From contig CAJTZB010000001.1 in the NCBI GenBank assembly GCA_910583815.1, positions 1-47,900 of the forward strand: DNA of 47,900 nt. The letters are read 5' to 3'. Source of the stretch: an uncultured Lachnospiraceae bacterium. GTDB lineage: Bacteria; Bacillota; Clostridia; Lachnospirales; Lachnospiraceae. The notes beneath the pieces were generated by a model. It searched no databases. It saw only the letters and a program-made list of their open reading frames with translations, and was not told where the DNA came from. The first letter of the stretch is position 1. Every line of letters starts with the position of its first letter. This document shows positions 2,405 to 17,356 of the stretch, piece after piece. The translations under genes were made by a program, and so were the position numbers.

Positions 2405-2432
2405 GCTTCATAGTATTTTAATCTTAAGTGGT

Positions 2433-2654: not shown

Positions 2655-2772
2655 AGACAGCGAATCTTTTTTATGGTCGAGCATTCGACATTTGAGTTAT
2701 TATAAATAGGAAAAACATGGATGGTGAAGAGCGATTCGGAAGCATTGTATATGGGAGGTGGTATATGGAAAT

Positions 2773-2967: not shown

Positions 2968-3179
2968 CGGACATCCACTGGATCAGGAGTGATGGAAATC
3001 ACATCCTGAACAGAGCAATGCAGGCAGAAGCAAAGCTTCTCTAAAGTAAGGGTAGTTACATTTTCGTTATGCTTTAGTTTGTAGATAGTTCTGCGGTCTA
3101 TGCCATGTCTGGTAATCAGAGTATAGGTAGTTTCGCCTTTCTCCTCCATGGTTTTCCAGAGCGGTTCGTAGCTAATCAT
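2964..3179 (-). CDS. small HTH DNA-binding protein (Cro/XRE-like), divergent from the glycan operon
   Basis: MISYEPLWKTMEEKGETTYTLITRHGIDRRTIYKLKHNENVTTLTLEKLCFCLHCSVQDV follows the pattern of ~70-aa HTH regulators. AAAGGAGGG lies 7 nt upstream of ATG 3179 on the minus strand. Confidence 0.7.
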   Translation of the reverse strand: MISYEPLWKTMEEKGETTYTLITRHGIDRRTIYKLKHNENVTTLTLEKLCFCLHCSVQDVISITPDPVDVR

Positions 3180-3308
3180 GTAATTTCCCTCCTTTTTGCA
3201 GTATTTGTATATGGATGTCGTCAAGACATCGACACTATAGTTTCTGTAATTTCATTATATTTATATGCTGAATAAATTGATATTCTGAAAAAATACAGCA
3301 TAATAAGG

Positions 3309-3337
3309 TTGAAATATGGAATGATATGCTGTATAAT
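3309..3337 (+). promoter_or_regulatory. candidate sigma-A promoter of the glycan operon
   Basis: TTGAAA (3309-3314), 17-nt spacer, TATAAT (3332-3337), about 33 nt upstream of ATG 3370. Confidence 0.5.
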
Positions 3338-3347
3338 TACAGCATAT
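3324..3347. promoter_or_regulatory. 24-bp palindrome (candidate operator) overlapping the -10 box
   Basis: ATATGCTGTA-TAAT-TACAGCATAT has perfect 10-bp arms. The same half-sites recur at 3263-3270 (ATATGCTG) and 3296-3302 (CAGCATA). Confidence 0.5.
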
Positions 3348-3369
3348 TCGAGAAGGCAGGAAGCAGAAG

Positions 3370-4602
3370 ATGCAGAAAGAGATGGGAAAACAAAAAGTAC
3401 TAATCATAACAACAATCAGTGGCTTTCTGCAGCAGTTTGAATTAAATGATGTCAGAATTCTTCAGGCATTGGGCTATGAAGTGCATTATGCCAGCAATTT
3501 TGAAACTTCGGTTTATGGGATAGATAATGAGCAGTTGCAGAAGCTTGGGATAGTGATTCATCCAATCTCAATCCAAAAATCTCCCTGTGCGGTTGGGAAA
3601 AATTTAAAAGCTTTGCGAGAATTGTGCAGGATAATAAGGGAGGAGCGAATTTTAGCCATTCATTGCCATAACCCTCTTGGTGGAGTGGTGGGAAGGCTAG
3701 CAGCGTTTTTGGGCGGGAAGAAAAGGCCATATGTGCTTTATACAGCACATGGCTTTCATTTTTATAAAGGTGCGCCATTCGTTAACTGGATGCTGTTTTT
3801 TCCGGCAGAATATTTGCTTGCAAGACTGACTGACTGCCTGATTACAGTCAATGAGGAGGATTATCAAAGAGTGTGCGCGATGCCTCTTAAAAAAGGCGGA
3901 AGGGCAGAACGGATACCAAGTGTCGGGATAGCAGAAGAAAAGTTTTCAGATAGGGCAGAACTTCGCATGGGAATCCGTGAAAAACATGGAATTCCCGAAG
4001 ACTGTTTTTATATTCTGACGGCAGGGGAACTGAACCGGAACAAGAACCAACAGGTTTTGCTGCATACGGTTGCTTTGCTTGGGCAGGAAAAGATACACCT
4101 TGGCATCTGTGGAGAGGGCTCTTGCCGGGAGGGTTTAAAAGTGTTGGCAGAGGAGCTTGGGATTACAGAGAAAGTCAGCTTTTTAGGATATAGGAACGAT
4201 TTGTGGGAACTTCTTGCGGCGGCAGATGCTTTTGCCTTCCCATCAATTAGAGAGGGATTTGCCATTGCACCGCTCGAAGCGTTGGCAGCAGGGCTTCCGC
4301 TGATTACATCAGAGCGAAGGGACAGCAGGGAATACATAAGGGATGAGGAAAATGGTTTCCTTTGCAGAAAAAATATACCACAGGAGTATGTGAGGGCAAT
4401 CCGTATCCTGATAAAGCAGCCTGAATTAAGGAAGAAGATGTCGGAGAACGGAAGAGAAGCAGCAAAGAAGTATGCCCTGCCCAAAACAGAGTGCATTATG
4501 AAGAAAATATATAGCAGCATTGCAAGAGAACATCCTGTCAGAAGTCCACAGCAGAATACAGAAAACCAGGCTGAATGGGCAGCCGGGAAAGAAGGAAAGT
4601 AA
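3370..4602 (+). CDS. glycosyltransferase, GT4 (GT-B, retaining type)
   Basis: VLIITT...HCHNPLGGVVGRLAA...YTAHGFHFYKGAP...ITVNEEDY in the N-terminal domain, and FPSIREGFAIAPLEALAAGLPLITS (E-x7-E-like region) in the C-terminal domain. Confidence 0.85.
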   Translation: MQKEMGKQKVLIITTISGFLQQFELNDVRILQALGYEVHYASNFETSVYGIDNEQLQKLGIVIHPISIQKSPCAVGKNLKALRELCRIIREERILAIHCHNPLGGVVGRLAAFLGGKKRPYVLYTAHGFHFYKGAPFVNWMLFFPAEYLLARLTDCLITVNEEDYQRVCAMPLKKGGRAERIPSVGIAEEKFSDRAELRMGIREKHGIPEDCFYILTAGELNRNKNQQVLLHTVALLGQEKIHLGICGEGSCREGLKVLAEELGITEKVSFLGYRNDLWELLAAADAFAFPSIREGFAIAPLEALAAGLPLITSERRDSREYIRDEENGFLCRKNIPQEYVRAIRILIKQPELRKKMSENGREAAKKYALPKTECIMKKIYSSIAREHPVRSPQQNTENQAEWAAGKEGK

Positions 4603-5484
4603 ATGCAGGAGGAAAAGCGGCCGGAAATCAGCGTGATTATGGGGGTTTATAGTAACAAAGATGCAAAATGGCTGGAAGAGAGCATTTCTTCTGTTTTGAA
4701 CCAGACATTTCCGGACTTTGAGTTCATTATTTACAGTGATGGTTCAGATGCAGCAGTGTTGAAGCAGCTTGAGCAGTATGCGAAGCAAGATAAGCGGATT
4801 ATCTTGCTGCACAACTCTATAAATCATGGTCTGGCGTATTCGCTGAATGCCTGTATTGATGTTGCAAAGGGGAAGTATCTCGCACGTATGGATGATGACG
4901 ACATCTGTATGCCAGAACGCTTTGCTGTACAGTATGCATTTCTGGAGAAACATCCGGAAGTGGACTTTGTTGGCGCAAATGTAAAACTGATAGACAGTGA
5001 TGGTGTATGGGGTGTGCGTCATATGCCAGAATATCCGAAGAAACAGGATTTCCTAAGATATTCCCCTTTTGTCCATCCCAGTATTTTTATCAGACGAAGC
5101 ATTTTTGAAAAGGCAGGAAATTATCGGTCCTCGGATGAAACCTGGAGGTGTGAGGATTATGAACTGTTTATGCGTTTCTGGAGGATGGGATGCTGTGGGT
5201 GCAATCTTAGAGAGGAACTGCTTTGTTACAGGGAGGACAGGGACGCTTACCGGAAACGGAAATGGAAATACAGAATCAATGAGGTAAAGTTACGCTACCG
5301 GAATTTTAAAGAAATGGGACTGCTGTTTCCGATTGGCTGGGCGTATGTACTGCGTCCGATTGCTGCCGGAATTATTCCGGCAAGGCTGATTTTTGAAATC
5401 AAAAGACTATATCATTTGCAGGAAAAAACAGATGAAAGACGAATGGGAAAAAAGAATCCGGCATTACCAAAGAAGGTTAAATAA
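4603..5484 (+). CDS. glycosyltransferase, GT2 (GT-A)
   Basis: ISVIMGVYSN...SVLNQTFPDFEFIIYSDGS...YLARMDDDDI (DxD). ATG follows directly after the upstream stop. Confidence 0.85.
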   Translation: MQEEKRPEISVIMGVYSNKDAKWLEESISSVLNQTFPDFEFIIYSDGSDAAVLKQLEQYAKQDKRIILLHNSINHGLAYSLNACIDVAKGKYLARMDDDDICMPERFAVQYAFLEKHPEVDFVGANVKLIDSDGVWGVRHMPEYPKKQDFLRYSPFVHPSIFIRRSIFEKAGNYRSSDETWRCEDYELFMRFWRMGCCGCNLREELLCYREDRDAYRKRKWKYRINEVKLRYRNFKEMGLLFPIGWAYVLRPIAAGIIPARLIFEIKRLYHLQEKTDERRMGKKNPALPKKVK

Positions 5485-6835
5485 GGTACCAATATTTTCC
5501 GAACTGTCGGAAAACCTGTGGACAGAATGGAAGGAAGAATTGCCTGAGCAGGCAGTATTTGCAGCAACAACAAGCTTTGTGCTGGCACCAATGCTCTGCA
5601 GTTATGTTCTCTGGGTGCTGCAGGAGGCTGTCAGGGCTGGGAAACGACGTCTGTATTTTTTGGCGCGGGATGGCTATCAGATGTATCAGATTGCAGAAAT
5701 ATTCTGTGGCAAATGGGGAATTTCGCTGGAATGCAAATATCTGTACTGTTCACGGTATGCGCTCCGTATGGCAGAGTATGCCCTGCATATAGATGCTGCA
5801 TTGGACTATTTATGTCTGGACGGCATTTATGTAACTTTGGAAACCGTATGCAACCGAGCAGGGATATTTTCTGAGGAAGAAATAGAACAAGCAGCAGAGG
5901 CGCTTGGCATAGCAGACCGTAAAAGGCGGCTTTCCTATGCTGAGTTAAAGACGCTGAGAAAAAAACTGGGGCAGTATGAGGAGTTCAAAAGGAAGATGAA
6001 AGAAAAAGGAAAAGAAGCCTATAAATCAGCGATTGGATATTTCAGACAAGAAGGGATGTTGGAAGAGATTCCTTACGCGTTAGTAGACAGTGGGTGGTCC
6101 GGCAGCATTCAGCAATCCTTTCTCCGTCTGCTTCAGAGTGCCGGGAAAAAAGAAGGGATACAGGGCTATTACTTTGGACTGTATGAATGTCCGAAAAAGG
6201 CTGACAGAAGCACGTACGGTACTTACTATTTTTCGCCGGAGCGCAGATTGCGAAGAAAGGCAGCCTTTAACAACAACCTGTTTGAATGTGTCTGCACGTC
6301 GCCGGAAGGGATGACAAAAAGGTATGAATATGAAAATGGGGGCTATGTTCCACGTCTTTCCGACAGAAAAAATCCTAACGCAGCCAAGGTAAGGGTTCAT
6401 ACGGAATATTTTAGGCGCTATGCGGAAGGTTTGGCGGAGCAGATGGAAAAAAAGAATCCAAAACAAAGGAAAGAGGCCTCCAAAGTTCTGGCCTCCCTGT
6501 TTTCCCTGCTGATGGTAAGTCCGACATTAGAGGAAGCAAGGGAATATGGAAGCTATGTGTTCTGCGATGATGTAATTGGGGAAGAAAACCAGAGACTGGC
6601 AGCACCCTTAAGTAAATATGAACTGAAAGCAAACAGGCTTTTTCCGCAGATAGTAAGGAAGTATTTCCGTATAGATAATAAAGCAAGAAGCAGTGCGTGG
6701 GCGGAGGCAAGTGCGGTGCTTGCCTATGGAAGCAGGAAGAGGGCAAGAAAAACACTTAGGCAGCTTAGGGTGGTACAGTATGTGCGTTGTTTCAGGAAGC
6801 AGAGGAAAGCAAAATGTGGGATAAAGAGCAGATAA
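5432..6835 (+). CDS. uncharacterised protein, paralogous to the C-terminal ~430 aa of the 1035-aa protein (8449-11556)
   Basis: Shared blocks are RLYFLARDGYQMY vs KVHFIARDGYLPK, YLYCSRYALRMA vs YIYASRKSMIAA, and LVDSGWSGSIQQS vs AFDLGYSGKLQAS. The start is uncertain: the ORF is open from 5393, and AGGAAA precedes ATG 5432. It overlaps the end of the GT2 gene. Confidence 0.6.
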   Translation: MKDEWEKRIRHYQRRLNKVPIFSELSENLWTEWKEELPEQAVFAATTSFVLAPMLCSYVLWVLQEAVRAGKRRLYFLARDGYQMYQIAEIFCGKWGISLECKYLYCSRYALRMAEYALHIDAALDYLCLDGIYVTLETVCNRAGIFSEEEIEQAAEALGIADRKRRLSYAELKTLRKKLGQYEEFKRKMKEKGKEAYKSAIGYFRQEGMLEEIPYALVDSGWSGSIQQSFLRLLQSAGKKEGIQGYYFGLYECPKKADRSTYGTYYFSPERRLRRKAAFNNNLFECVCTSPEGMTKRYEYENGGYVPRLSDRKNPNAAKVRVHTEYFRRYAEGLAEQMEKKNPKQRKEASKVLASLFSLLMVSPTLEEAREYGSYVFCDDVIGEENQRLAAPLSKYELKANRLFPQIVRKYFRIDNKARSSAWAEASAVLAYGSRKRARKTLRQLRVVQYVRCFRKQRKAKCGIKSR

Positions 6836-7587
6836 AGCAATATGTGTTTGTCATACGAGAACTGACAGGGAGAGAGATTAAAAGAAAGTATGCAAGGTCC
6901 TATCTTGGAATCTTGTGGAGCGTGCTGAATCCGCTTTTGTCAATGGCAGTGATGTCTTTGATTTTCTCTGCAATGTTTAAAAGGAGCATTGAAAATTATC
7001 CAATTTATTATTTGACAGGCAATATTATTTGGTCGTTTTTTACAGGAGCAACCAACAGTGCAATGACGGCGCTTGTGGACAATAAAATGATGCTGATAAA
7101 AGTGAAGCTGCCAATGTCCATTTTTCCGTTGTCGAGGTGCTATACGGCGCTTGTAAATTTTGGGTATTCTATTATTGCGTTTACGATTATGTTGCTGGTA
7201 TTTAGGATTCCGCTTCAGCCCTATATTCTGCTTTTTCTATTATATGCGATAGGAGTATTTTTCTTTTCGCTTGGCATGGGGTATTGGCTTTCTGTTTTGT
7301 ATGCAATCTTTGGGGATATTAAGCATTTGTACTCTATTTTGCTGATGCTCTGGATGTATCTGTCGGCTCTTTTTTATCCGGTAGAGAATACAACGCCGAT
7401 GATGCAGGCCATTATTTTGCGGAATCCGATTTACAGCTTTATTTCATCGGCAAGAAAATGCATTTTATATGCAGAATTTCCTAGTACAGAGGAATGGTTT
7501 AGGATGTGCGGGTGGAGTATCGGAATGTACCTGTTTGGCAGGTTAGTATTCCAGAAAATGCAAAATAAGGTGTTACAGAAAATTTAG
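6814..7587 (+). CDS. ABC-2 type polysaccharide/teichoic-acid export permease (Wzm/TagG-like)
   Basis: REIKRKYARSYLGILWSVLNPLL signature followed by six hydrophobic segments. AGAGGAAAG precedes ATG 6814. Confidence 0.85.
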   Translation: MWDKEQIKQYVFVIRELTGREIKRKYARSYLGILWSVLNPLLSMAVMSLIFSAMFKRSIENYPIYYLTGNIIWSFFTGATNSAMTALVDNKMMLIKVKLPMSIFPLSRCYTALVNFGYSIIAFTIMLLVFRIPLQPYILLFLLYAIGVFFFSLGMGYWLSVLYAIFGDIKHLYSILLMLWMYLSALFYPVENTTPMMQAIILRNPIYSFISSARKCILYAEFPSTEEWFRMCGWSIGMYLFGRLVFQKMQNKVLQKI

Positions 7588-8366
7588 TGGAAAAAGGCAG
7601 CAGGAAAATGATAGAAGAAAAACAAATTGTGATAGACATAAAGCATATCAGTATGCAGTTTCGGATTGCAAAAGAGGCGTCAGGAAGTTTAAAAGAATTC
7701 CTGATTCGGATGGTTGGGAGGCAGAACAGTTATCAGACGATAAGCGTATTGGATGACATCAGCTTTCAGGCGAAGGAAGGTGATGTTATTGGGATTATCG
7801 GAACAAATGGCTCTGGAAAAAGTACGTTACTAAAGATTGTCTCAGGGGCATTGCAGCCGACAAGCGGAACAGTCATGGTAGACCGAAGCAAAGTACAGCT
7901 TTTAACACTTGGTACCGGTTTTGATATGGAACTGACAGCAAGAGAAAATGTATATCTGAATGGTGCGCTTATCGGCTACAGTAAGGAGTACTTGGATAGA
8001 ACATATGATGAAATTGTGGCTTTTGCCGAACTGGAAGGATTTATGGGGGAACGGATGAAGAATTTTTCTTCTGGTATGGTATCGCGGCTTGGTTTTGCGA
8101 TTGCCACAATGAGGGATACGCCGGAGATTCTGATTTTGGACGAAGTGCTGAGTGTTGGTGACATGTTCTTCCGAAAAAAGAGCGAGCAAAGGATCCAAGA
8201 GATGATACATGGCGGTGCGACCGTGCTGATTGTGTCGCATTCATTGGATGTTATTTTGAAAAACTGCAATTATGCAGTCTGGATTGAAAAAGGAAAGTTA
8301 CAGATGGCAGGTGCTGTAAAAGAAGTATGCGAGGGGTATAGAGGATACCAGAACAGAAAGAAATAG
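7587..8366 (+). CDS. ABC transporter ATP-binding protein (Wzt/TagH-like, no C-terminal carbohydrate-binding extension)
   Basis: Walker A GTNGSGKST, signature FSSGMVSRLGFA, Walker B ILILDE. The start is either GTG 7587 (overlapping the upstream stop) or ATG 7608. Confidence 0.85.
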   Translation: MEKGSRKMIEEKQIVIDIKHISMQFRIAKEASGSLKEFLIRMVGRQNSYQTISVLDDISFQAKEGDVIGIIGTNGSGKSTLLKIVSGALQPTSGTVMVDRSKVQLLTLGTGFDMELTARENVYLNGALIGYSKEYLDRTYDEIVAFAELEGFMGERMKNFSSGMVSRLGFAIATMRDTPEILILDEVLSVGDMFFRKKSEQRIQEMIHGGATVLIVSHSLDVILKNCNYAVWIEKGKLQMAGAVKEVCEGYRGYQNRKK

Positions 8367-8390
8367 AAGAACTACAGGAGGAAAAGTGAA

Positions 8391-8501
8391 ATGGGGACGG
8401 GAAAAAACAAAAAAGGGAAAATAAGGGAATTCGGGGGGGGGCAGAGATGTGGAAGAAAATGTAATCTATCCGAAGCTTTCGGTGATTGTACCGGTATATA
8501 A
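8391..8501 (+). other. 36-codon out-of-frame leader ORF that begins at the only good RBS/ATG upstream of the 1035-aa gene and runs through the G9 tract
   Basis: AGGAGG 8376-8381, ATG 8391, reads MGTGKNKKGKIREFGGGQRCGRKCNLSEAFGDCTGI, stop TAA 8499-8501. Removing one G would put it in frame with 8449-11556. Confidence 0.4.
8433..8441 (+). repeat. homopolymeric G9 tract (candidate slipped-strand phase-variation site)
   Basis: Direct read: tcGGGGGGGGGcagag. Confidence 0.9.
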
Positions 8502-11500
8502 TACGGAAAAATATATAGAAAACTGTCTGAACAGCATTAGCAGGCAGACATATCAGGATATGGAAGTCATCGTAGTGAATGATGGAAGCACAGATGGCTC
8601 TGCAGATATTATAGATCGTCTGATGCAAAAAGACAAGCGTATCAGATGTATTGCCAAAGAGAAAAATGGAGGGCTTTTTTGTGCAAGAGTCACAGGTGTG
8701 GAAAACTCTTTGGGAAAGTATATCGCTTTTGTAGACAGCGATGATACAGTCAGTGTGGATTGGTTTCGGCTTCTTGTGAAAAAAGCAGAAGAGACTGAAG
8801 CAGACATTGTTATGGGAAACACCGTTTGTGAAGATGAGAAACACAATAAATATATTTACAACACTTATTATTTTGCTGCGCGGTCAAGAGAGGATGTGCA
8901 TGGAGAGGCAGTCTTGGATTCTTTGATGGAAAATGAAGGAATGTGCTTTTCTAAGCATACCGTCTGGAACAAGCTGTATTCAAGAAGGATATGGGAACAG
9001 GCCCTGCCGCATTTCAGAATGATAAAACAGCATTTTGTTATGACAGAAGATATAGCATTTTCTGTAGTGCTTCATTATTATGCAAAAAAGCTGGCATATT
9101 CCAGACACGATGGATATTTCTATTATCGTAATGGAAGTTCTTCCACGATTGCAGTCAATGGATTGGAAAAGATAAAGAAAAATGTGAAAGACTTAAAGAA
9201 ATCTTTTTCCTTTGTGAAAGCATTTCTTCAGGAAAAAGAAGTATTTGAAAAATATGAAAAGAAATATCAAAACCTGAAAGACAGATATTTCAGATGGTGG
9301 AGTTATTCAGTAAAAAAGAATACAGAAGAAAAGTCAAAGGAAGCACAGTATGTCAGAAAGGATTTTCTTGCGTTTTTTGGAAAAACAGAGTTTGAAACTC
9401 CCAAAGAAGAGGATGATTTTTTTACAGATGCATACACAACATGGAATGGACAGTATGAGCAGTTAAAACTCTCGATTTTAGATGCAGCAATAGAATATGT
9501 TTCTTTTGATATTTTTGACACATTGATACTGCGGCCGTTTTTGGAACCAACAGATTTATATTTTTTTATGGAAAAGGAATTCAAGTCGCTGGTTCCGGGA
9601 AATCTTTCGTTTCATGAAGTAAGGGCTGATGCAGAACGTCTGTGCCGTAAAAATATAAAAATATGGGCTCCGAGCAGTCAGGATGTTACTTTGCAGGAAA
9701 TTTATGAACAGATGAGAAAGAGGTATCAATTTTCTGAGGATGTATGCAGACGCCTAATGAAAAAGGAGGAAGAGTTAGAGATTAAATTCTGCACGGAAAG
9801 AAAAGCAGGAAAAGAACTATATGAGATGGCACATGCTGCTGGAAAGAAAATTATTTTGATTTCGGACATGTATTTGGAGGAGGAAACAGTAAATGCTATT
9901 TTGCAGAAGAACGGATATACATTGCATGAAAAGCTGTTTTTGTCTTCCACGGAGCGATATTTAAAGTGTTCGGGCGATTTATTTAAAATTGCATTGCAGA
10001 CATGTCAGGTTCGGCCAGAAAGCATGCTGCATATTGGAGACAATTGGAATTCTGATTATCTGCAGCCGCCAAAGCTTGGCTGCAAATCGTTTTTTCTGCC
10101 AAAAACAAAGGATATTTTATTTAATACGCTTGGAGATGCTTATACTGGTGAGGCAATCAGTGCTACTTTTAATAATATCAATTCCATCATTGATACTTCC
10201 GCCATTATGAAAAATCCAATGGTACGTTCTTTATATGCGTTGGCTGCAAATGAGCTGTTTGACAATCCGTTTGTCTCGTTCAATTCAGCTTCAAACTATA
10301 ACAGGGATGCCTATTTTGTCGGCTATTTTACAGTGGGAATGCATTTGCTTGGGATTGGAAGATGGATGGCAAAAGAGCTGTGCAGAAGTAATTATGAAAA
10401 GGTTCATTTTATTGCAAGAGATGGTTATCTGCCTAAAAAAGTATATGACATTATCAGGAAGTACGAAACAGGTTTACCACCATCAGAATATATCTATGCA
10501 AGCAGGAAATCAATGATAGCAGCGTCAATACGTTCAAGCCTTGATTTATATAGTATCAAAGAAAACTGTTCTATTTACAGCCAGACACCAAAATCTATTT
10601 ATAAGTTATATGCGGACGTACTTGTGCCATTGGATGATGAGGTGCTTGGAAAGTTTAAAAAGCTGGGTATTTTATTTGATAGGAAATTTGCCAATGAAGA
10701 GGAGTTTCAGTTTTTTGTGGAACAGCTTGCAGAGATTGCTTATGACAAACAAAGGGCAGAAGAAAGTTATCAGAGCTGCAGCCGGTATTTTAAAGACAGA
10801 ATAGGGGAAGCGGACGTTGCGTTTGACTTGGGCTACAGCGGAAAGCTTCAGGCTTCTGTCTGCAGGGCGCTTGGATTTCCGATGGACGTGCTCTATCTGC
10901 ATTCTAACGGATTTGGAGCAACGCAGCAGGCGCGGTTTCACGGATACCATATCAAGAGCTATTATGATTTTGACACTTCGATGTCCGGTATTGTAAATGA
11001 GTTTATTTTTTCGGACTATGGTCCTTCTTGCATTGGCTACCGGATGGAGCAAGGGAAGGCTGTGCCGGTATTTGAGGAGAAAGAAACGGCATATCAGGAA
11101 AAATATCTGTTGGATGAAATTGCAAGAGGGTGCGAAAAGTATGTCGGGGATTTTTATAAAATATTTCAGGAACAGCTTTCTTTCTTCGATTTTCGCATTA
11201 TGGAGACATCGCTTCCATATGAGCGTTTTTTGATGAATCCGAAGTGGTTTGACCTGAATCTGCTGAAGTGCTGTTATCTGGAGGATGAATATTATGGGGG
11301 AATCAGCAGAAAGCGCCTTTCGGACCATTGGTGGTGGCAGATGAACCAACGCTGCCTTCTTGCGGAAAACATGCAGCAGAACAGTGGGATTGCCGTACCT
11401 TTAAATGCAGATTCGGAATTGGGGCAGATCTATCAGGATGGAGTATTTGTTGCTGTTTACCGGAAAATCAACAGGCTGTTTCCGCTTGGAAGCAGGAGGC

Positions 11501-11556
11501 GCGAATTTTTAAAGAAGATTGGCGGGAAGGTGGCAGGGCAAAGAAAAAGAACATAG
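8449..11556 (+). CDS. three-domain protein: GT2 glycosyltransferase, HAD-like hydrolase domain, and an uncharacterised C-terminal domain
   Basis: GT2: LSVIVPVYNTEKYI...VVNDGSTDGS...FVDSDD. HAD-like: VSFDIFDTLILRP (nt 9508-9522), ILISDMY, HIGDNWNSD. C-terminal: FIARDGY (10414-10428) and DLGYSGKLQ. As assembled, the only start is GTG 8449 with no clear SD. Confidence 0.8.
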   Translation: MEENVIYPKLSVIVPVYNTEKYIENCLNSISRQTYQDMEVIVVNDGSTDGSADIIDRLMQKDKRIRCIAKEKNGGLFCARVTGVENSLGKYIAFVDSDDTVSVDWFRLLVKKAEETEADIVMGNTVCEDEKHNKYIYNTYYFAARSREDVHGEAVLDSLMENEGMCFSKHTVWNKLYSRRIWEQALPHFRMIKQHFVMTEDIAFSVVLHYYAKKLAYSRHDGYFYYRNGSSSTIAVNGLEKIKKNVKDLKKSFSFVKAFLQEKEVFEKYEKKYQNLKDRYFRWWSYSVKKNTEEKSKEAQYVRKDFLAFFGKTEFETPKEEDDFFTDAYTTWNGQYEQLKLSILDAAIEYVSFDIFDTLILRPFLEPTDLYFFMEKEFKSLVPGNLSFHEVRADAERLCRKNIKIWAPSSQDVTLQEIYEQMRKRYQFSEDVCRRLMKKEEELEIKFCTERKAGKELYEMAHAAGKKIILISDMYLEEETVNAILQKNGYTLHEKLFLSSTERYLKCSGDLFKIALQTCQVRPESMLHIGDNWNSDYLQPPKLGCKSFFLPKTKDILFNTLGDAYTGEAISATFNNINSIIDTSAIMKNPMVRSLYALAANELFDNPFVSFNSASNYNRDAYFVGYFTVGMHLLGIGRWMAKELCRSNYEKVHFIARDGYLPKKVYDIIRKYETGLPPSEYIYASRKSMIAASIRSSLDLYSIKENCSIYSQTPKSIYKLYADVLVPLDDEVLGKFKKLGILFDRKFANEEEFQFFVEQLAEIAYDKQRAEESYQSCSRYFKDRIGEADVAFDLGYSGKLQASVCRALGFPMDVLYLHSNGFGATQQARFHGYHIKSYYDFDTSMSGIVNEFIFSDYGPSCIGYRMEQGKAVPVFEEKETAYQEKYLLDEIARGCEKYVGDFYKIFQEQLSFFDFRIMETSLPYERFLMNPKWFDLNLLKCCYLEDEYYGGISRKRLSDHWWWQMNQRCLLAENMQQNSGIAVPLNADSELGQIYQDGVFVAVYRKINRLFPLGSRRREFLKKIGGKVAGQRKRT

Positions 11557-11570
11557 AAGGAGGATAGTGC

Positions 11571-13085
11571 ATGGTTTTATATTTTGTAAAAACAACATAT
11601 CAATTGTTGGAGTGCATCATACATAAATTCACGGTACATGAAGCAGAAGATGCAGTGCTGCTTATAAATAATGGCCATGTGAAAAATTATCCAAATTATG
11701 AACAGCTAGAACAGTTTGGATTTAAAAAAATTATTATTTATACCACAGGAAAAATCACAAGTAAGGAAACAGATGACAAGAGGAAATTTGTAAATGATAT
11801 TGTGAAGTATTACGATGAGCTGTTTGAGAAGGATTCTATTGATTTGGATATGATGTCATGTATTTATTCTTTTGCTGCATTGCGCTTTAGTATTTATTTG
11901 ATAGAGAAAAAAAAGAAATTTTTCTTGTTTGAAGATGGGGTAGGGGCAGCGAAGACTTTAGGATTGGTTTTGTGGAGAGAAAATCTAGATAAAGTTGATA
12001 AAAATGCATTGGCAAGGAAATATGGGCTCTTTGATGGAAGCAATAGCTTAATATCTAATATCTACTATAATCCGTCTAAAGGAATTTTAGATAACAGTAA
12101 GGCAGTTTTTTATGATGTGTCAAAAGAGCTAGAAAAACTATCAGAAGAAAGGAGAGATAGTATTATTTCGTTTTTCTCCAAAGAGCATACCAAGAGGCAG
12201 CAAGAGGTTGATAATTTAGTTTTATTCCGGCATTGCTATGCCGGAAGTGAAAGCTTTGACAGCCAGCAAAGCAGTCTGTTGGAGTTTGTTTTGGATTGGT
12301 TTGGGGTAGAGGGAAATTTTGTTGTGAAGACGCATCCGATGGATATGGCTCACTACAAGGAATACCCTAATGTAGAGTGGATTGACAGACAGCTTCCCTC
12401 GGAATTATTGCCATATGTGATTGGAGATAAAGTAATAAATCTAATCGCTGTAGCTACGACGTCATTTTATTCATTTAGTGAAAGGGCTTTTAGGACTTGC
12501 TATCTCAGTTATGATGTGGCTGAAATGAAAAGGGGAATAAGCAGGGAAGTTATGGCATTAAAGCTTATCAGGGAAGTGGGATTAGAAAAGCATGTTTTTT
12601 CAATATATGGTATGTATACTCAAATTTCCAAAATAGTTATTGAAAAATATTATCAGAAAGATGTGAATGTACTATGGGGGAACTTTGGGACAAATGAAAA
12701 AGAAGTGCTGCTGATTGACGAACTGATCTGGGGAAAACAGAAGAATGACTGCAAAAAAGAATTAAACAGGTTTATGCGGCGATGCGATGCAGAATCAATA
12801 GTTGTATTTCTTGATTCAAAAGGCAATATGGAGTTTTGTAAATGTATAGATGAGGAAATGTTTCCATATATGCTGAGCTATCATATTGAGTATGATTTTG
12901 CCTATGGCACAAAGCTTAGTGAATATATACATATATGGTGTAAAAGCGATATGCTGAGAAAACGTTTAGCTTATGCAAGAAGTATAAAATTTCTTCCGTT
13001 TACTCAGACCGTTGTGAGGATTTCTATTGCAGAAGGATGGGAGAGGATAAAAATGCAGAGCCGGATTGCGATGGAGAAACTTTGA
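11571..13085 (+). CDS. putative CMP-sugar-dependent glycosyltransferase, sialyltransferase-like (GT52-like motifs), with a ~200-aa C-terminal extension
   Basis: LFEDGVG (EDG at 11931-11939) and VVKTHPMD (HP at 12333-12338) lie 134 aa apart. The N-terminus is MVLYFVKTTYQLLECIIHKF. It sits next to two cytidylyltransferase genes and is visibly more AT-rich than its neighbours. Confidence 0.5.
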   Translation: MVLYFVKTTYQLLECIIHKFTVHEAEDAVLLINNGHVKNYPNYEQLEQFGFKKIIIYTTGKITSKETDDKRKFVNDIVKYYDELFEKDSIDLDMMSCIYSFAALRFSIYLIEKKKKFFLFEDGVGAAKTLGLVLWRENLDKVDKNALARKYGLFDGSNSLISNIYYNPSKGILDNSKAVFYDVSKELEKLSEERRDSIISFFSKEHTKRQQEVDNLVLFRHCYAGSESFDSQQSSLLEFVLDWFGVEGNFVVKTHPMDMAHYKEYPNVEWIDRQLPSELLPYVIGDKVINLIAVATTSFYSFSERAFRTCYLSYDVAEMKRGISREVMALKLIREVGLEKHVFSIYGMYTQISKIVIEKYYQKDVNVLWGNFGTNEKEVLLIDELIWGKQKNDCKKELNRFMRRCDAESIVVFLDSKGNMEFCKCIDEEMFPYMLSYHIEYDFAYGTKLSEYIHIWCKSDMLRKRLAYARSIKFLPFTQTVVRISIAEGWERIKMQSRIAMEKL

Positions 13086-13102
13086 TGGAAGAGGGAGATG
13101 TT

Positions 13103-13435
13103 ATGTACTATATGGAATACAAAGAAATCGGAAGGCGGATTGCAGAAAGGCGGAAAAAACTCCGCATGACTCAGGCAGAGGTAGAGGACAGGGCAAATTT
13201 AAGCCGCAAGTATTTATCCAATATTGAACATGGACGTTCTGTTCCTTCCATTGATGTCCTGATGCAGATTGCAGATGTGTTACATAGTACGCCAAATGAA
13301 TTTTTGCTTGGGGCAGACTTGACAGGCAGGTCAGAACTGGCTGCCGCACTGACTTCCGATATCCAGCGTCTGTCAGAGGATAAGCAGGCAATAGCGAAGA
13401 GCTTTATTGGCTGGCTGGAAGAACAGCAGTCGTAA
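13103..13435 (+). CDS. XRE-family transcriptional regulator embedded in the glycan locus
   Basis: IGRRIAERRKKLRMTQAEVEDRANLSRKYLSNIEHGRSVPSIDVLMQIADVLHSTPNEFL. GAGGGAG 13091-13097 precedes ATG 13103. Confidence 0.8.
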   Translation: MYYMEYKEIGRRIAERRKKLRMTQAEVEDRANLSRKYLSNIEHGRSVPSIDVLMQIADVLHSTPNEFLLGADLTGRSELAAALTSDIQRLSEDKQAIAKSFIGWLEEQQS

Positions 13436-13470
13436 ATCATAGTGATCAATACTGAGAGGAGGAAAGGAAA

Positions 13471-14202
13471 ATGGAAAAGAAGGAAACAAATGTTCGATGG
13501 GGGGGGGTAACGGCTGTTATTCCGGTTAGGGCCGGAAGCAGGCGCCTGAAAAATAAAAATGTAGCCCCATTCGCAGGGACAAATCTTTTGCTGAATAAAA
13601 TTGAACAGCTGAAAAAGGTATCAGAGGTAGAACGCATTGTTGTTACTTCTGATTCTGACATGATGCTCGCAATGGCAGAACAGGCAGGGGCGCTGATACA
13701 TAAACGTGCACCTGAGTTTTGTGACGAATCTACCAAAACGTTTGGAGAAGTAGTACGCCATGTAGCAGAAAATGTACAAGGAGAGCATATTCTTTGGGCG
13801 ACCTGTACTTCGCCGCTTGTGTTTCCGTCTACCTATGAGCAGGCAATTGCAAAGTATTGGGAAGCACTTGAAGCAGGGTATGACTCTTTGGTTTCGTTTG
13901 AAAGAATCAAGCGTTATCTTTGGAATGAAGAAGGACCGCTTAATTATGAACTTGGACTGAAACACGTGCCTTCACAGCAGCTGCCTGACCTTTATATTGT
14001 AACCGATGGAATTTTACTTGCTCCGCGTGAAAAAATGATAGAGTGGTCTTATTTCCACGGAAGGAATCCATACAAGTTCATTGTAGACAAGCGTACTGCT
14101 ATGGATATTGATGATGGGCTTGATTTGGCGACCGCCAGGGCATGGCTTGACATGGATGAGAGCGTATCTCATATTGAGCCTTTTTCCAAAGGAACGATGT
14201 AA
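13471..14202 (+). CDS. cytidylyltransferase of the CMP-NeuAc/CMP-Kdo synthetase superfamily (CTP_transf_3-like)
   Basis: VTAVIPVRAGSRRLKNKNVAPFAGTNLL...VVTSDSD...HILWATCTSPL. AGGAGG precedes ATG 13471. Codons 10-13 contain the G9 tract. Confidence 0.8.
   Translation: MEKKETNVRWGGVTAVIPVRAGSRRLKNKNVAPFAGTNLLLNKIEQLKKVSEVERIVVTSDSDMMLAMAEQAGALIHKRAPEFCDESTKTFGEVVRHVAENVQGEHILWATCTSPLVFPSTYEQAIAKYWEALEAGYDSLVSFERIKRYLWNEEGPLNYELGLKHVPSQQLPDLYIVTDGILLAPREKMIEWSYFHGRNPYKFIVDKRTAMDIDDGLDLATARAWLDMDESVSHIEPFSKGTM
13499..13507 (+). repeat. homopolymeric G9 tract inside codons 10-13 of the cytidylyltransferase (in frame as assembled)
   Basis: Direct read: cgatGGGGGGGGGtaacg, translating ...RWGGV... 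Confidence 0.9.
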
Positions 14203-14297
14203 TCAGCAGCAAAAGAAATCCTCACGAATGGATGAAAATATCCGTCTGTGGGGATTTTTGTTTCCCGGAGACGGCAAACAGCCGAGGAGGGAAGATA

Positions 14298-14957
14298 ATG
14301 AGAGCAGCATGCTTTATACCAATTAAAGCAAATTCGGAACGTGTTCCGGGAAAGAACTTCAGAATACTGAATGGAAAAAAGCTATATGAGTACATAGTGG
14401 CGCATGCAATAGAAGCCGCCTGCTTTGATGATATTTATATTGATACAAACAGTGAGGAAATCAAGGATTATGCTTTGGAACGAGGACTGTCTGTTATTGA
14501 CCGCCTAGATACTCTGGCTCAAAATACAGCAAATGGAAATGACCTTCTTGTTTATCATGGAAAGCAATATCCGCAATATGATTATTATTTTCAGCTATTT
14601 GCAACTGCACCGTATTTACAGCCGGAATCTATCAGAAACTGTTTTGAAGCATTGGTTTCCAGCGAAGAATACGATTCCTGCTTTACTGCATTGCAGAACA
14701 ACAGCTTTTATTGGCTGAATCACATGCCGATTAATTACAGACCGGGGATTTTGCCACGCAGTCAGGATATGGTGCCGGTTGTAGAAGAAACTACCGGCAT
14801 GTATGGAATCAGTAAAGATTCTCTTGGAAAATACCAATGCAGAATCGGCAGGAATCCATATATTTATTATGTCAGTAAGTTTGAAGCAGTGGATATCAAT
14901 ACAGAGGAAGATTTGCTGATAGCAGAGTATATTGGGAAACAGTACTGGAATATGTAA
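14298..14957 (+). CDS. second cytidylyltransferase paralogue (acylneuraminate cytidylyltransferase-like family)
   Basis: MRAACFIPIKANSERVPGKNFRILNGKKLYEYIVAHAIEAACFDDIYIDTNSEEI. GAGGAGGG precedes ATG 14298. Confidence 0.8.
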   Translation: MRAACFIPIKANSERVPGKNFRILNGKKLYEYIVAHAIEAACFDDIYIDTNSEEIKDYALERGLSVIDRLDTLAQNTANGNDLLVYHGKQYPQYDYYFQLFATAPYLQPESIRNCFEALVSSEEYDSCFTALQNNSFYWLNHMPINYRPGILPRSQDMVPVVEETTGMYGISKDSLGKYQCRIGRNPYIYYVSKFEAVDINTEEDLLIAEYIGKQYWNM

Positions 14958-15022
14958 GAGGTTGAAAGCCGTCAGTTCAGCAGGAAAGAGAGGAGTTTTT
15001 CAGTATACCCTTGCCAAATGAC

Positions 15023-15058
15023 GTCAGGGTGTCAAAAAAACTTTTTTGACATCCTGAC
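15023..15058. terminator. 17-bp-stem hairpin between convergent genes (bidirectional terminator candidate); member of the GGGTGTCAAAA hairpin family
   Basis: GTCAGGGTGTCAAAAAA / TTTTTTGACATCCTGAC with one G-U pair. A/T runs flank the loop on both strands. Confidence 0.6.
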
Positions 15059-15114
15059 TTTTATAGCGGATTGAATGAAGGGCTTCGTCTGTTTTTCAAT
15101 ATATGTAAACATCT

Positions 15115-17345: not shown

Positions 17346-17356
17346 GAGGAAGAAGA

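Follow-up and report, generated by a model that had tools for sequence, protein, structure and literature searches.

What does a co-directional block of glycosyltransferase, transporter and regulator genes in an uncultured gut Lachnospiraceae species make, and is its output switched between strains? We addressed this in the 47,900-nt stretch of DNA that carries the block (the window), together with contigs of the same and related species. The locus is a real, accessory, phase-variable, ABC-transporter-dependent surface-glycan locus, and its gene content leads us to favor, with reasonable rather than full confidence, a reading in which one operon builds a ribofuranose-containing surface glycan and exports it by the ABC route under two-tract phase switching.

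Island extent and proposed operon control

The block lies in a strain-variable island, which we describe together with the control elements found in it:

1306-15113, no strand: strain-variable island, 13.8 kb, holding an AraC gene, regulator remnants, the glycan operon and a terminator
1311-2282, + strand: AraC-family regulator gene (NCBIfam AraC/RobA-type HTH matches), at the island's left edge and absent from island-less contigs
2433-2684, - strand: truncated XRE-like ORF, whose HTH_31/HTH_3 match spans only the first ~40 profile positions
2964-3179, - strand: divergent gene for a 71-aa Cro/C1-type HTH (HTH_26) protein (PF13443, E 2.9e-12; VanU-like match)
3263-3347, no strand: operator/promoter region (two 25-nt site copies, palindrome, promoter match)
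13085-13435, + strand: XRE-family HTH regulator (PF01381, E 6e-14)
15023-15058, + strand: intrinsic terminator at the operon's 3' end (T run after a 16-bp stem; top terminator-like site)

Three conspecific contigs without the island (L100, L101 and L106) match the window at 1-1305 and 15114-20000 (15023-20000 in L101) with 97.8-98.9% identity, and a ~1.6-kb alternative segment encoding a 54-aa ORF and a transglutaminase-core protein replaces the island in other conspecific strains. An earlier sequence-only reading had proposed comparing sister strains for presence or absence of the block, with synteny breakpoints at ~3.2 kb and ~15 kb; on that comparison the island is present in some conspecific contigs and the alternative segment in others, the right breakpoint is borne out (15113), and the left edge lies instead at 1306 (~1.3 kb). 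Direct repeats flanking the island were looked for and none were found, and next to coaX the locus is missing from 80 related species representatives. The description of the block as accessory and horizontally acquired is upheld by the conspecific contigs with and without it, by an allelic swap left of 13102, inside the island, that gives contig L102 a different sialyltransferase-like allele, and by the occurrence of the same cassette across genomes spanning 29-52% GC. The block is probably one operon within an island of some strains of the species.

Every gene and site in the earlier inventory was found where that reading had placed it, including all listed genes of the co-directional block, which are tightly packed (intergenic gaps of -53 to +95 nt), the divergent small HTH gene and the palindromic operator over the -10 box. 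The operon has one strong promoter match and one strong terminator-like site. The best promoter match, TTGAAA-17-TATAAT at 3309-3337 (11/12 positions), has its -10 box TATAAT (3332-3337) spanned by a perfect 10-4-10 palindrome at 3324-3347, and a 25-nt site occurs in two copies (3278-3302 and 3322-3346, 84% identical), of which the upstream one is underlain by a second promoter-like match. Transcription would start at 3309-3337 and would probably be repressed through the -10-box palindrome by the divergent 71-aa HTH_26 protein, a candidate repressor of the operon. The truncated XRE-like ORF is, from its partial profile match, probably a decayed divergent regulator. Small ORFs overlapping it reach 2967. 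The start codon of the XRE regulator inside the operon overlaps the stop of the 504-aa gene before it (ATGA), and the sister locus L011 ends with a homologue 55-57% identical to it. At the 3' end, the hairpin stands as the strongest terminator-like site; it gave a score on the + strand only, which does not show it to be "bidirectional".

Predicted enzymes of glycan assembly and export

Between promoter and terminator, in addition to the XRE regulator, the operon encodes:

3370-4602, + strand: GT4 glycosyltransferase (PF00534, E 6.5e-43)
4603-5484, + strand: GT2 glycosyltransferase, EpsE/TuaG-like (PF00535, E 6e-30; NF053739, 215 bits, under its cut-off)
5432-6835, + strand: stand-alone glycan phosphoribosyltransferase (gPRT, CriT-like) lacking a phosphatase domain (Bcs3 match and fold)
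6814-7587, + strand: Wzm, ABC-2 permease (PF01061; galactan Wzm/RfbD model, 65 bits)
7608-8366, + strand: Wzt, ATP-binding subunit, 252 aa (TagH model, 174 bits; galactan Wzt model, 165 bits)
8449-11556, + strand: three-domain enzyme, GT2 - PRP (HAD phosphatase, CrpP-like) - gPRT (CriT-like) (PF00535, E 2.8e-40)
11571-13085, + strand: GT-B glycosyltransferase of bacterial sialyltransferase type (between GT52 and GT38), 504 aa (fold, motifs, Pfam of relatives)
13471-14202, + strand: cytidylyltransferase A (CT-A), NeuA/PseF-like (CTP_transf_3, PF02348, E 4.7e-16)
14298-14957, + strand: cytidylyltransferase B (CT-B), NeuA/PseF-like (CTP_transf_3, PF02348, E 9e-19; PpNeuA, 9T4Z, E 1.6e-18)

The stand-alone gPRT had been set down as an unknown domain, X, a label we reject: by sequence and fold it is the PRPP-dependent gPRT known as the CriT domain of Haemophilus Bcs3. 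It matches Bcs3 residues 656-848 (E 8e-10), and its AF2 model (pLDDT 89.7) significantly matches no PDB fold other than Bcs3 (E 1e-10, TMq 0.60) and 7SHG, a ribofuranosyl transferase of T. composti. Residues R79, D80, G81, S107, R108, D219, G221, G224 and E285 are invariant; R79-D80, S107-R108 and D219 align with R679-D680, S707-R708 and E818 of Bcs3, and from its position, outside the printed alignment, we infer that E285 is the counterpart of Bcs3 E874. A second copy of the domain, as previously noticed, forms the fusion's C-terminal part (BLASTP E 3e-6; common invariant residues), and the HAD domain of the fusion is, on its sequence matches, the ribose-5-phosphate phosphatase that partners the gPRT. 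X and HAD together are the known gPRT/PRP ribofuranosyltransferase pair described in 2022-2023, and the terms "undescribed system" and "unknown domain" no longer apply; given this pair, the polymer probably contains ribofuranose. The gPRT/PRP mechanism and its ABC-dependent precedents have been reported (PMC10299916, PMC11231755, PMC11127046, PMC11294581).

Residues 349-694 of the fusion match Bcs3 382-717 (E 1e-16/1.8e-17), the FDIFDTLI motif (Bcs3 D386) and FIARDGY are kept, and the protein also matches 7SHG (E 6e-11). Its homologues at E<=1e-10 exceed 2500, some perhaps matching the GT2 domain alone; of the best 120 listed, most are full-length (~1030 aa), and those that carry a name come from Firmicutes. 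We infer that the fusion is the chain polymerase. Its GT2 domain might instead be non-catalytic, with the enzyme making a ribofuranose homopolymer as a fused equivalent of Salmonella T1 STM0725 + STM0726, where a DXD-motif GT-A-fold protein complexes with the PRP-gPRT enzyme and is needed for processive poly-Ribf synthesis, PRPP being the sole donor (PMC11294581). The three T1 modules (GT-A, PRP and gPRT) are indeed joined in one chain here, yet the GT2 domain matches active GT2 enzymes strongly and in full (the PF00535 match above; GalT1, 5HEA, E 4.5e-24) and keeps its DSDD motif, and in Klebsiella O4 and O7 Ribf transfer alternates with ordinary glycosyltransferases, so that we regard a homopolymer as unlikely and retain a polymerase with two active transferase domains.

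The 504-aa protein is a GT-B enzyme whose fold is nearest to bacterial (poly)sialyltransferases. Its AF2 model (pLDDT 87.6) has polysialyltransferase 5WC6 (E 3e-6) and the alpha2,3-sialyltransferase 4V2U as top PDB folds, with a C-terminal domain of ~165 aa after the GT-B part. E121, D122, G125, H255, P256, P276, S277 and E278 are conserved (invariant or in >=90% of sequences), G123 being read from the sequence FEDGVGA. The window protein itself reached no Pfam sialyltransferase model and its relatives match PF07922 and PF07388; fold, motifs and relatives concur with the earlier "sialyltransferase-like". The gene adjoins two NeuA-like CMP-sugar synthetase genes: CT-A, with CMP-Neu5Ac synthetases as best PDB sequence matches, and CT-B, the cytidylyltransferase type kept in related cassettes (33-38% identical to those of L011 and L009). 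In related cassettes KdsB-type and KdsC-type genes and a DmpG-like aldolase adjoin the same GT type, which ties it to CMP-ulosonic acids; ulosonic acid synthesis genes were not found in the window. These three genes might form a separate module acting on another target, protein or lipid, as the interchangeability of the cassette's 3' part could suggest (a pyruvyltransferase set in L096, a Kdo-type set in L009-L011, a swap within the species in L102). Interchangeable 3' modules are, however, the usual mark of side-chain variation in a single polymer, as in Epa/Rgp-type loci, and in every locus compared (window, L009, L010 and L011) the module comes straight after the polymerase gene, similarly oriented and with 14-95 nt gaps; in L010 it lies between that gene and wzm/wzt. 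We hold a separate target to be improbable, and decoration of the exported polymer to be the better reading.

Export would rely on Wzm and on a Wzt that comprises just the nucleotide-binding domain and lacks a C-terminal carbohydrate-binding module. Wzx/Wzy, a chain-length regulator, an initiating phosphoglycosyltransferase, an LCP ligase and a TagF-type enzyme were all absent from window ORFs >=100 aa, in line with the absences claimed before; Wzm/Wzt without Wzx/Wzy supports the ABC-dependent pathway. Rather than a secondary wall polymer attached to peptidoglycan, the product might be a lipid-anchored capsule or exopolysaccharide, or a glycan carried by a protein such as an S-layer protein, a reading we rate as somewhat unlikely. 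The window holds no LCP ligase or TagO-type initiator, the GT4 (kept in related cassettes at 40-57% identity, with a role we would place at an early or adaptor step) is weakly similar to glycolipid-anchor synthases, the nearest gPRT systems to have been characterised belong to capsules and O antigens, and Bacillaceae S-layer glycans also use Wzm/Wzt. Against this, an oligosaccharyltransferase and a KpsS/KpsC-type linker enzyme are equally absent, and since the genes for wall-polysaccharide ligases and initiators commonly lie apart from the glycan locus in Firmicutes, not finding them in the window decides nothing.

Tract length and open reading frames

The 47.9 kb contain just two G/C runs >=8, the G9 tracts at 8433-8441 and 13499-13507, which lie as follows:

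8391-8501, + strand: native 5' end of the polymerase gene (AGGAGG Shine-Dalgarno at 8376-8381, start ATG 8391, spacing 9 nt)
8433-8441, + strand: poly-G tract 1 (polymerase gene, codons 15-17); G9 in the window
13499-13507, + strand: poly-G tract 2, codons 10-12 of CT-A; window G9 = ON

In a shuffle test 3/100 sequences reached as many matches, which is weak taken alone, and the tracts draw their significance from length polymorphism between strains. In 12.4 kb shared by contigs 99.7-99.85% identical, all indels fall at 8433, at 13499 or at two sites between the CT-A start codon and tract 2. Read from consensus assemblies, one per sample, eight independent conspecific contigs have tract 1 lengths of 8, 8, 9, 9, 9, 10, 10 and 11, and tract 2 is G9 in five conspecific contigs and G10 in six. 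Both tracts lie within the first 20 codons of their genes and their lengths decide whether the frame is open: for tract 1, G9 is OFF and G8 and G11 are ON, and all four ON/OFF combinations occur among conspecific contigs. The window copy has, by reading frame, the polymerase OFF and CT-A ON. Tract length also varies at the homologous sites of a sister species (52% GC; polymerase 76% identical), with G11/G12 at tract 1 and, in the same AATGTTCGAT context, G9/G10 at tract 2. There tract 2 falls in the 3' end of a KdsB-type gene and not at a 5' end, which makes its effect less clear. The remaining indels of that locus are at two sites near its end (19390 and 19432) and, at 8756-8803, inside a 37-nt repeat array that separates wzm from wzt. 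The earlier call of two contingency tracts is thereby sustained.

The first tract had been placed in a leader; it lies within the polymerase coding sequence, which is frameshifted in the window copy: the frame from ATG 8391 meets a stop after 36 codons. In-frame products of 1054/1055 aa are encoded in L003, L006 and L004, homologues P0015, P0017 and P0018 share the same Lys-rich N-terminal extension, and the polymerase start overlaps the wzt stop codon in L095 and L096; this overlap, with G6 at the tract position in L095, indicates that tract 1 is coding sequence.

The differences could also be homopolymer sequencing or assembly noise, or neutral polymorphism, with translation from GTG 8449 regardless of length and no functional switch. 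All lengths do come from consensus assemblies; GTG 8449 sits 7 nt past the G-rich stretch, a possible ribosome-binding site, and is ATG in the sister species, so that it could permit some polymerase translation in "OFF" alleles; gene callers chose forms of 1035 aa and 1025 aa; and three contigs of lineage c are alike at G10/G10, for which switching may be slow or the lineage fixed OFF. Such an origin is nonetheless very unlikely in view of indels confined to or beside the tracts in near-identical sequence from many independent samples, tract positions kept across species at 76% protein identity while one relative has G6 and another none, and the canonical start at ATG 8391 with its shared extension. 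In addition, the CT-A leader has three alleles in which small non-homopolymer indels reset the in-frame tract length, exactly as frame selection predicts. Under phase switching, length changes between near-identical strains should turn polymer and decoration on and off, and strand slippage would flip the polymer separately from one decoration, so that four surface states result.

Proposed pathway and its precedents

Assembly would begin on a lipid-linked primer made by an enzyme encoded elsewhere, to which the GT4, the EpsE-like GT2 and the stand-alone gPRT, the last transferring beta-ribofuranose-5-phosphate from PRPP, would add the first sugars. The GT2-PRP-gPRT enzyme would then extend the chain by alternating nucleotide-sugar transfer (GT2) with PRPP-dependent ribosyl transfer (gPRT), its PRP domain stripping the 5-phosphate so that the chain can grow. 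The two NeuA-like cytidylyltransferases would supply one or more CMP-activated ulosonic acids for the sialyltransferase-like GT-B enzyme to attach as a cap or as side chains, and the finished chain would be exported by Wzm and a Wzt lacking a cap-reading domain. In its architecture the locus is a variant of the ABC-dependent assembly known for O antigens and capsules, and the chain extension proposed for the fusion resembles that of Klebsiella O4, Haemophilus Bcs3 and Salmonella T1.

An accessory island with operon-like packing

Among contigs encoding an identical PdaB, the two classes that we compared differ by the entire gene block, which is present in the window and in the conspecific contigs L097, L099 and L102-L105 and absent from L100, L101 (GCA_965114435.1) and L106, also conspecific, where the interval from flavin reductase to pdaB holds a transglutaminase-core gene and a 54-aa ORF, the latter annotated in L100 and L106. 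Conspecific contigs thus occur both with and without the block, which bears out the accessory character proposed for it in the sequence-only reading. Homology between the window and the block-less contigs stops at 1305, rather than near 3.2 kb where the left breakpoint had been expected, and restarts at 15114 (15023 in L101), placing the island at 1306-15113 with the AraC gene included. Neither direct repeats nor a tRNA gene were found at the island junctions, which makes a site-specific integrative element unlikely and favours replacement of the island through recombination within its flanking genes. The principal features are the following:

1306-15113, strain-variable island
3309-3337, predicted promoter, overlapped by a palindrome at 3324-3347
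5432-6835 (+), X, a stand-alone protein related to glycan phosphoribosyltransferases (gPRT, CriT-like)
8391 (ATG) or 8449 (GTG) to 11556 (+), presumed polymerase, a fusion of GT2, HAD ribose-5-phosphate phosphatase (PRP, CrpP-like) and gPRT modules
8433-8441, tract 1
11571-13085 (+), sialyltransferase-like ORF encoding a 504-aa protein
13085-13435 (+), internal XRE regulator
13471-14202, cytidylyltransferase A (CT-A)
13499-13507, tract 2
14298-14957, cytidylyltransferase B (CT-B)
15023-15058, hairpin

Allelic exchange is also seen inside the island. Right of 13102, contig L102 is conspecific with the window (99.45% identity), and left of this position its allele is another one, encoding a polysialyltransferase-like protein of 530 aa, which shares only 23% identity with the 504-aa protein of the window, and a polymerase with a different C-terminus. 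The difference has the appearance of a serotype-like exchange inside the island. The locus lies next to coaX in none of 80 related species representatives, and synteny with the closest of these begins only at DUF6145. Its core cassette (in order, a divergent XRE gene, GT4, GT2, gPRT, Wzm, Wzt and GT2-PRP-gPRT) is found again, in unrelated contexts and with differing 3' modules, in genomes whose GC content is 29%, 39% and 52%, and the locus itself averages 41.2% GC against 44-45% in its flanks, with 35.0% in the sialyltransferase-like gene. In two related cassettes, the divergent XRE gene and GT4 are separated by a TnpB-like gene with a Cas12f1-like_TNB domain (L095 911-2164 and L096 2984-4228); such insertions hint at an association with mobile elements.

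The window is matched in reverse orientation by CATLGQ010000001.1 (MAG GCA_949935705.1; L001 and L094), the two being one base apart across the 12.4 kb compared, at position 8398 (C in the window, A in that record), a difference that alters codon 3 of the polymerase leader between AAG (Lys) and ACG (Thr). The flanking genes PdaB, SpoIID, GerA, CoaX, DusB and PheST, the last with a T-box leader upstream, are markers of a spore-forming Firmicute, and nearly all of the 80 closest CoaX loci among GTDB genomes, the best at 94% identity, are from uncultured Lachnospiraceae of animal and human guts. The T-box leader (27764-27985, + strand; RF00230, 99 bits, exceeding the gathering score) precedes pheS/pheT at 28133-31703 and is the single Rfam match in the window, the scan returning no riboswitch or leader RNA within the locus. 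A PAS-GGDEF-EAL protein is encoded about 11 kb downstream of the island (25872-27698, + strand) and a GGDEF-EAL protein directly downstream of the sister-species locus (L011 19775-22876), a neighbourhood that is probably a coincidence.

The ten co-directional genes lie where the sequence-only reading put them and are separated by gaps of -53 to +95 nt, the sialyltransferase-like gene ending in a stop codon that overlaps with the start codon of the internal XRE gene. The palindrome proposed to cover a -10 box indeed does so: the best sigma-70-like promoter of the region (TTGAAA-17-TATAAT, 3309-3337) has its -10 element within the perfect 10-4-10 palindrome at 3324-3347, and the divergent small HTH gene encodes a 71-aa HTH_26 product. 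The operator site is present twice, the second copy being 84% identical and overlapping another promoter-like match. The palindrome is not conserved among related loci, a different one being found in L011, so that comparison gives no support to the regulator-operator link. The closing hairpin is a 16-bp, top-ranking terminator-like site that scores on the + strand only, and the bidirectional function ascribed to it is not upheld. An exact look-up of the internal XRE protein matched its source contig alone. On the - strand at 2433-2967, a truncated XRE-like ORF (83 aa, covering the first half of the HTH profile only) and several overlapping small ORFs probably represent a decayed regulator, where related loci retain an intact divergent XRE gene.

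Two ribofuranosyltransferase-type enzymes and an ABC exporter

The domain that had been left as unknown in X is a glycan phosphoribosyltransferase. The 467-aa protein aligns with residues 656-848 of Bcs3, the capsule polymerase of Haemophilus influenzae type b (E 8e-10), and its AlphaFold (AF2) model (pLDDT 89.7) has significant PDB matches restricted to Bcs3 (E 1e-10, TMq 0.60-0.63 over about 400 aligned columns) and to 7SHG, a polysaccharide ribofuranosyl transferase from Thermobacillus composti (E 9e-10). In the 1035-aa form of the fusion, residues 349-694 align with Bcs3 382-717 (E about 1e-17) and also match 7SHG. PMC10299916 assigns Bcs3 residues 374-591 to CrpP, the HAD ribose-5-phosphate phosphatase, and places PRPP binding and catalysis at S678-R679-D680, S707-R708, the E818 loop and E874. 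Across 24 stand-alone proteins and three fused domains, X residues R79, D80, G81, S107, R108, D219, G221, G224 and E285 are invariant, and the alignment pairs R79-D80 with R679-D680, S107-R108 with S707-R708 and D219 with E818; by its position outside the residue alignment, E285 would be the counterpart of E874. In the fusion, the PRP module that immediately precedes the gPRT module carries FDIFDTLI, aligned with Bcs3 D386, and a conserved GDNxxSD motif. Together, the Bcs3 and 7SHG matches, the conserved residues and the fold identify X as a gPRT and the fusion as a GT2-PRP-gPRT enzyme. Both are predicted to use PRPP and to yield beta-Ribf. Stand-alone X has no PRP module and is therefore a relative of the gPRT/PRP family rather than a canonical bipartite member.

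The ribofuranosyltransferases described in the literature are bipartite gPRT-PRP enzymes. This pair was described in 2022-2023 and acts in the Klebsiella O4 and O7 O antigens, which are ABC-transporter-dependent, in the capsule of Hib and in the T1 antigen of Salmonella (PMC11231755, PMC11127046 and PMC11294581). The three-domain form of about 1030 aa is common: its homologues at E<=1e-10 exceed 2500 in number, although a part of them may match through the GT2 domain only; the 120 best homologues listed are mostly full-length, those with a name belonging to Lachnospiraceae, Clostridium, Paenibacillus and other Firmicutes and being annotated only as 'HAD-IA hydrolase' or 'glycosyltransferase'. 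Phosphatase-less stand-alone gPRT proteins, about 430-510 aa long and annotated as hypothetical, fall into at least 676 clusters and are covered by no Pfam model.

The locus encodes both Wzm (an ABC-2 permease) and Wzt (the nucleotide-binding subunit), and Wzx/Wzy are found nowhere in the window, as is the case for ABC-dependent pathways. The other absences claimed from the sequence held as well, with no flippase, polymerase of that type, chain-length regulator, initiating transferase or LCP ligase across the window; neither a lipid-carrier initiating transferase nor a final ligase was thus found on the 47.9-kb contig. Wzt (252-259 aa) consists of the nucleotide-binding domain without a cap-recognising carbohydrate-binding module, so that any cap is not read by export through Wzt. 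A classical teichoic acid pathway is ruled out by the absence from the locus of TagF/TagB/TagD/TarI-type domains: it encodes no CDP-glycerol or CDP-ribitol phosphotransferase and no matching TagD/TarI cytidylyltransferase, and a TagF-type enzyme is encoded nowhere in the window. Resemblance to a teichoic acid pathway is limited to the exporter, which is TagGH-like. A group 2 capsule is ruled out by the lack of KpsS/KpsC.

Length variation in two poly-G tracts

The two G9 runs of the sequence-only reading are the sole G/C runs of at least 8 on the contig, and the first of them, described there as a leader, proves to be an expanded run within the native coding sequence of the polymerase. The ATG at 8391, upstream of tract 1, is preceded by a canonical AGGAGG at 9-nt spacing, and polymerase homologues of 68-70% identity carry an equivalent Lys-rich N-terminal extension. 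In L095 and L096, wzt ends in a stop codon that the polymerase start codon overlaps, and a G6 run occupies the position of tract 1 in L095. These in-frame extensions and overlapping starts indicate that the native start lies upstream and that tract 1 falls inside the coding sequence, which rules out a 5'-UTR or spacer element. From ATG 8391, G8 and G11 give products of 1054 and 1055 aa, and translation stops after 36 codons with the G9 of the window and after 24 with G10. Residual polymerase translation could start from the GTG at 8449, whose counterpart in the sister species is an ATG. Tract 2 forms codons 10-12 of CT-A, immediately before the nucleotide-binding strand, and the G9 of the window is in frame.

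Across 12.4 kb, identity among conspecific contigs of independent samples is 99.7-99.85%, and their indels are limited to positions 8433 and 13499 and to two small sites lying between the CT-A start codon and tract 2. With further conspecific contigs included, tract lengths vary as tabulated below, and all four ON/OFF combinations of the two tracts are seen. The first nine codons of CT-A (13471-13498) exist as three conspecific alleles (GGAAAAG versus GGAAAG, and CGAT versus CGATT versus CGATAT), whose indels recode the leader peptide and shift the tract 2 length that is in frame.

Table. Tract lengths in consensus assemblies of conspecific contigs (8 contigs for tract 1, 11 for tract 2)
Tract 1 (8433-8441): G8, n=2; G9, n=3; G10, n=2; G11, n=1
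Tract 2 (13499-13507): G9, n=5; G10, n=6

In the sister species, with a polymerase 76% identical and a genome of 52% GC, tracts of G11/G12 and G9/G10 occupy the homologous positions, the second sharing the AATGTTCGAT context with tract 2 of the window. Indels in the sister-species locus are confined to the two tracts, two sites near the locus end and, between wzm and wzt, a tandem-repeat array of a 37-nt unit. This array (L011 8573-9012) comprises about 12 copies of the unit in the wzm-wzt spacer, extends into the start of the 289-aa wzt call, differs by indels between the sister-species contigs L011 and L012, and is absent from the window. Both tracts are homopolymers of at least 8 in a 5' coding region whose length sets the reading frame, as in contingency genes, and the pattern in these consensus assemblies is, short of proof, the one expected of contingency loci. 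The tracts are predicted to switch reversibly, and so to alter expression, within clonal populations. A full-text literature search on homopolymer phase variation in Lachnospiraceae returned a single paper, on an unrelated subject.

Probable ulosonic-acid module, proposed pathway and known systems

The 504-aa protein has neither a Pfam match nor a PDB sequence match, and a profile of its family searched against PDB sequences gave nothing meaningful, so that for PDB entries the link to sialyltransferases comes from the fold search. Its AlphaFold model (pLDDT 87.6) shows a GT-B fold with an extra C-terminal domain of about 165 aa, and the best Foldseek matches are 5WC6, a Mannheimia polysialyltransferase (E 3e-6), and 4V2U, a Pasteurella alpha2,3-sialyltransferase (E 2e-5), each at probability 1.0 yet with modest TM-scores of 0.36-0.50. 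Relatives extend this link at the level of domain models: PF07922 (GT52) is present in two of 12 word-indexed relatives (P0007 and P0012). A full profile search returned 2064 representatives, of which 457, mostly about 520 aa long, reach E<=1e-30; in three of 10 sampled from this search (P0256, P0260 and P0370), PF07388 (alpha-2,8-polysialyltransferase) scores above cut-off. D/E-D/E-G and H-P motifs are the signature of bacterial sialyltransferases. E121 and H255 do not vary among 12 sequences, at least 90% of which keep D122 and P256, and P276-S277-E278 are similarly conserved; G123, read from FEDGVGA of the window protein, completes the first motif, and E121-D122-G123 and H255-P256 fit this signature. 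The 12-sequence alignment of the GT52-like family held no stretch conserved enough for a pattern search of GTDB genomes, and a four-sequence alignment gave 370 pattern matches there, none of which was confirmed.

CT-A and CT-B, adjoining the sialyltransferase-like gene, belong to the CTP_transf_3 (NeuA/KdsB-type) class; their nearest solved structures are CMP-Neu5Ac synthetases, and both score far below the PseF cut-off. No NeuB or NeuC gene was found in the window and no ulosonic-acid synthase on the contig. In related cassettes, a DmpG-like (HMGL family) pyruvate aldolase is encoded beside the sialyltransferase-like gene (L009 9944-12129, L010 11186-14200 and L011 15439-18777), with a KdsB-type cytidylyltransferase in L010 and L011, a PseF/NeuA-like cytidylyltransferase and a KdsC-type phosphatase in L009, and KdsA or NeuB in none of the three. 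With this gene set, Firmicutes may make a Kdo-like acid by way of an aldolase. The KdsB- and KdsC-type genes and the aldolase indicate that the module, as a class, handles CMP-activated 3-deoxy-ulosonic acids, and they point to a Kdo-type sugar rather than Neu5Ac, with CMP-sialic acid a putative donor for the 504-aa protein. A literature search on Kdo in Gram-positive wall polymers yielded nothing useful.

We propose a model where a primer made elsewhere would be extended by GT4, GT2 and the stand-alone gPRT, and where the GT2-PRP-gPRT enzyme would polymerise a beta-ribofuranose-containing repeat. The cytidylyltransferases and the sialyltransferase-like enzyme would attach an ulosonic acid as cap or side chain, and the chain would be exported by Wzm and a Wzt devoid of a cap-reading module. 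Slippage in tract 1 would toggle the polymer and slippage in tract 2 one CMP-sugar, while the 71-aa HTH protein would repress the promoter through the palindrome. That this is an accessory, phase-variable, ABC-dependent ribofuranose-type surface-glycan locus is in our view fairly probable; any specific sugar or anchor can be named with low confidence. We consider improbable, as a whole, a further reading that combines three proposals: that the phosphatase-less gPRT leaves ribose-5-phosphate in the chain, which if true would represent a new anionic, teichoic-acid-like chemistry in Firmicutes; that the sialyltransferase/polysialyltransferase-like enzyme caps with or polymerises a CMP-activated ulosonic acid, made in sister loci by a DmpG-type pyruvate aldolase and not by KdsA/NeuB; and that a gut commensal gains four heritable glycoforms from independent poly-G switches in the polymerase and a CMP-sugar synthetase, with the operon-internal XRE protein coupling the locus to other surface loci.

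Surface glycans decide the encounters of gut bacteria with phages, antibodies and lectins, and to our knowledge almost nothing is known of those of Lachnospiraceae, a dominant and mostly uncultured gut family. Metagenome data here reveal three layers of surface variation in one accessory island, namely its presence or absence, allelic exchange of glycosyltransferases, and two slippage-prone G tracts conserved across species. The PRPP-dependent ribofuranose pathway is extended to a cassette in Firmicutes of 29-52% GC, and two unannotated families, the stand-alone gPRT (at least 676 clusters) and the sialyltransferase-like family of about 520 aa (at least 2000 representatives), become targets for biochemistry. 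No paradigm is overturned: the parts are of known kinds, and what is new is their combination and host. The new elements are the host clade, a fused GT2-PRP-gPRT enzyme alongside a phosphatase-less gPRT, a GT38/52-like module on an ABC-dependent Gram-positive glycan, and a pair of candidate poly-G switches at conserved positions, one within the presumed polymerase.

Klebsiella pneumoniae O4/O7 synthesis (PMC11231755 and the 2022 work cited there) shares with the window the Wzm/Wzt route, PRPP-dependent ribofuranosyl transfer followed by dephosphorylation, a repeat built by Ribf transfer and ordinary glycosyltransferases, and chain-modifying enzymes in the locus. The window differs in its Gram-positive host, the fusion of GT2, PRP and gPRT in a 1054-aa chain, a second and phosphatase-less gPRT, the lack of a coiled-coil terminator protein and of a carbohydrate-binding module in Wzt, and predicted switching by poly-G tracts. 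Bcs3 (CroT-CrpP-CriT; PDB 8A0C; PMC10299916), which X and the HAD domain match best in sequence and in fold and whose catalytic residues they keep, is likewise a multi-enzyme polymerase in one polypeptide with an ABC-exported product. Its N-terminal module, however, is a TagF-like ribitol-phosphate transferase rather than a GT2, and the window lacks an SH3b domain, a CDP-ribitol synthase and the KpsS/KpsC poly-Kdo linker machinery; the absence of the first two implies that the product is not a ribosyl-ribitol-phosphate polymer. Salmonella T1 is also a phase-variable, accessory, ABC-transporter-dependent ribofuranose glycan with a PRP-gPRT enzyme and a GT-A-fold partner, whereas its switch is a promoter inversion rather than the slippage proposed here for two intragenic poly-G runs, it has no CMP-sugar module, and it is attached to lipid A-core (PMC11294581).

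With the GT52 (Neisseria Lst, GBS CpsK), GT38 and GT80 enzymes, the 504-aa protein shares the GT-B fold (5WC6, 4V2U), the E-D-G and H-P motifs and adjacent CMP-sugar synthetase genes, and it differs from them in falling below the Pfam models, in its extra C-terminal segment of about 165 aa and in a window without sialic-acid synthesis genes. The Rgp, Epa and Cwps loci of streptococci, enterococci and lactococci are Gram-positive and ABC-dependent on a lipid carrier, with initiator and ligase encoded elsewhere, and resemble the window in a conserved core with a strain-variable decoration region; their polymers are rhamnose-based, and we know of no gPRT/PRP, sialyltransferase-like enzyme or homopolymer switch in them. 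In Campylobacter jejuni, intragenic poly-G tracts toggle glycan-modifying genes, mostly for decorations, and give combinatorial surface variation. Its capsule and LOS share with the window sialyltransferases and CMP-sugar synthetases in glycan loci and an ABC-exported ribose-containing glycan, with PRPP-dependent ribose transfer in HS:2 (PMC12096443). Campylobacter is nonetheless an unrelated Gram-negative pathogen with KpsMT/KpsSC, and one tract of the window lies in a presumed backbone polymerase. Overall, by analogy, backbone synthesis and export appear to resemble those of Klebsiella O4/O7, Hib and Salmonella T1, and the switching logic that of the Campylobacter capsule and LOS.
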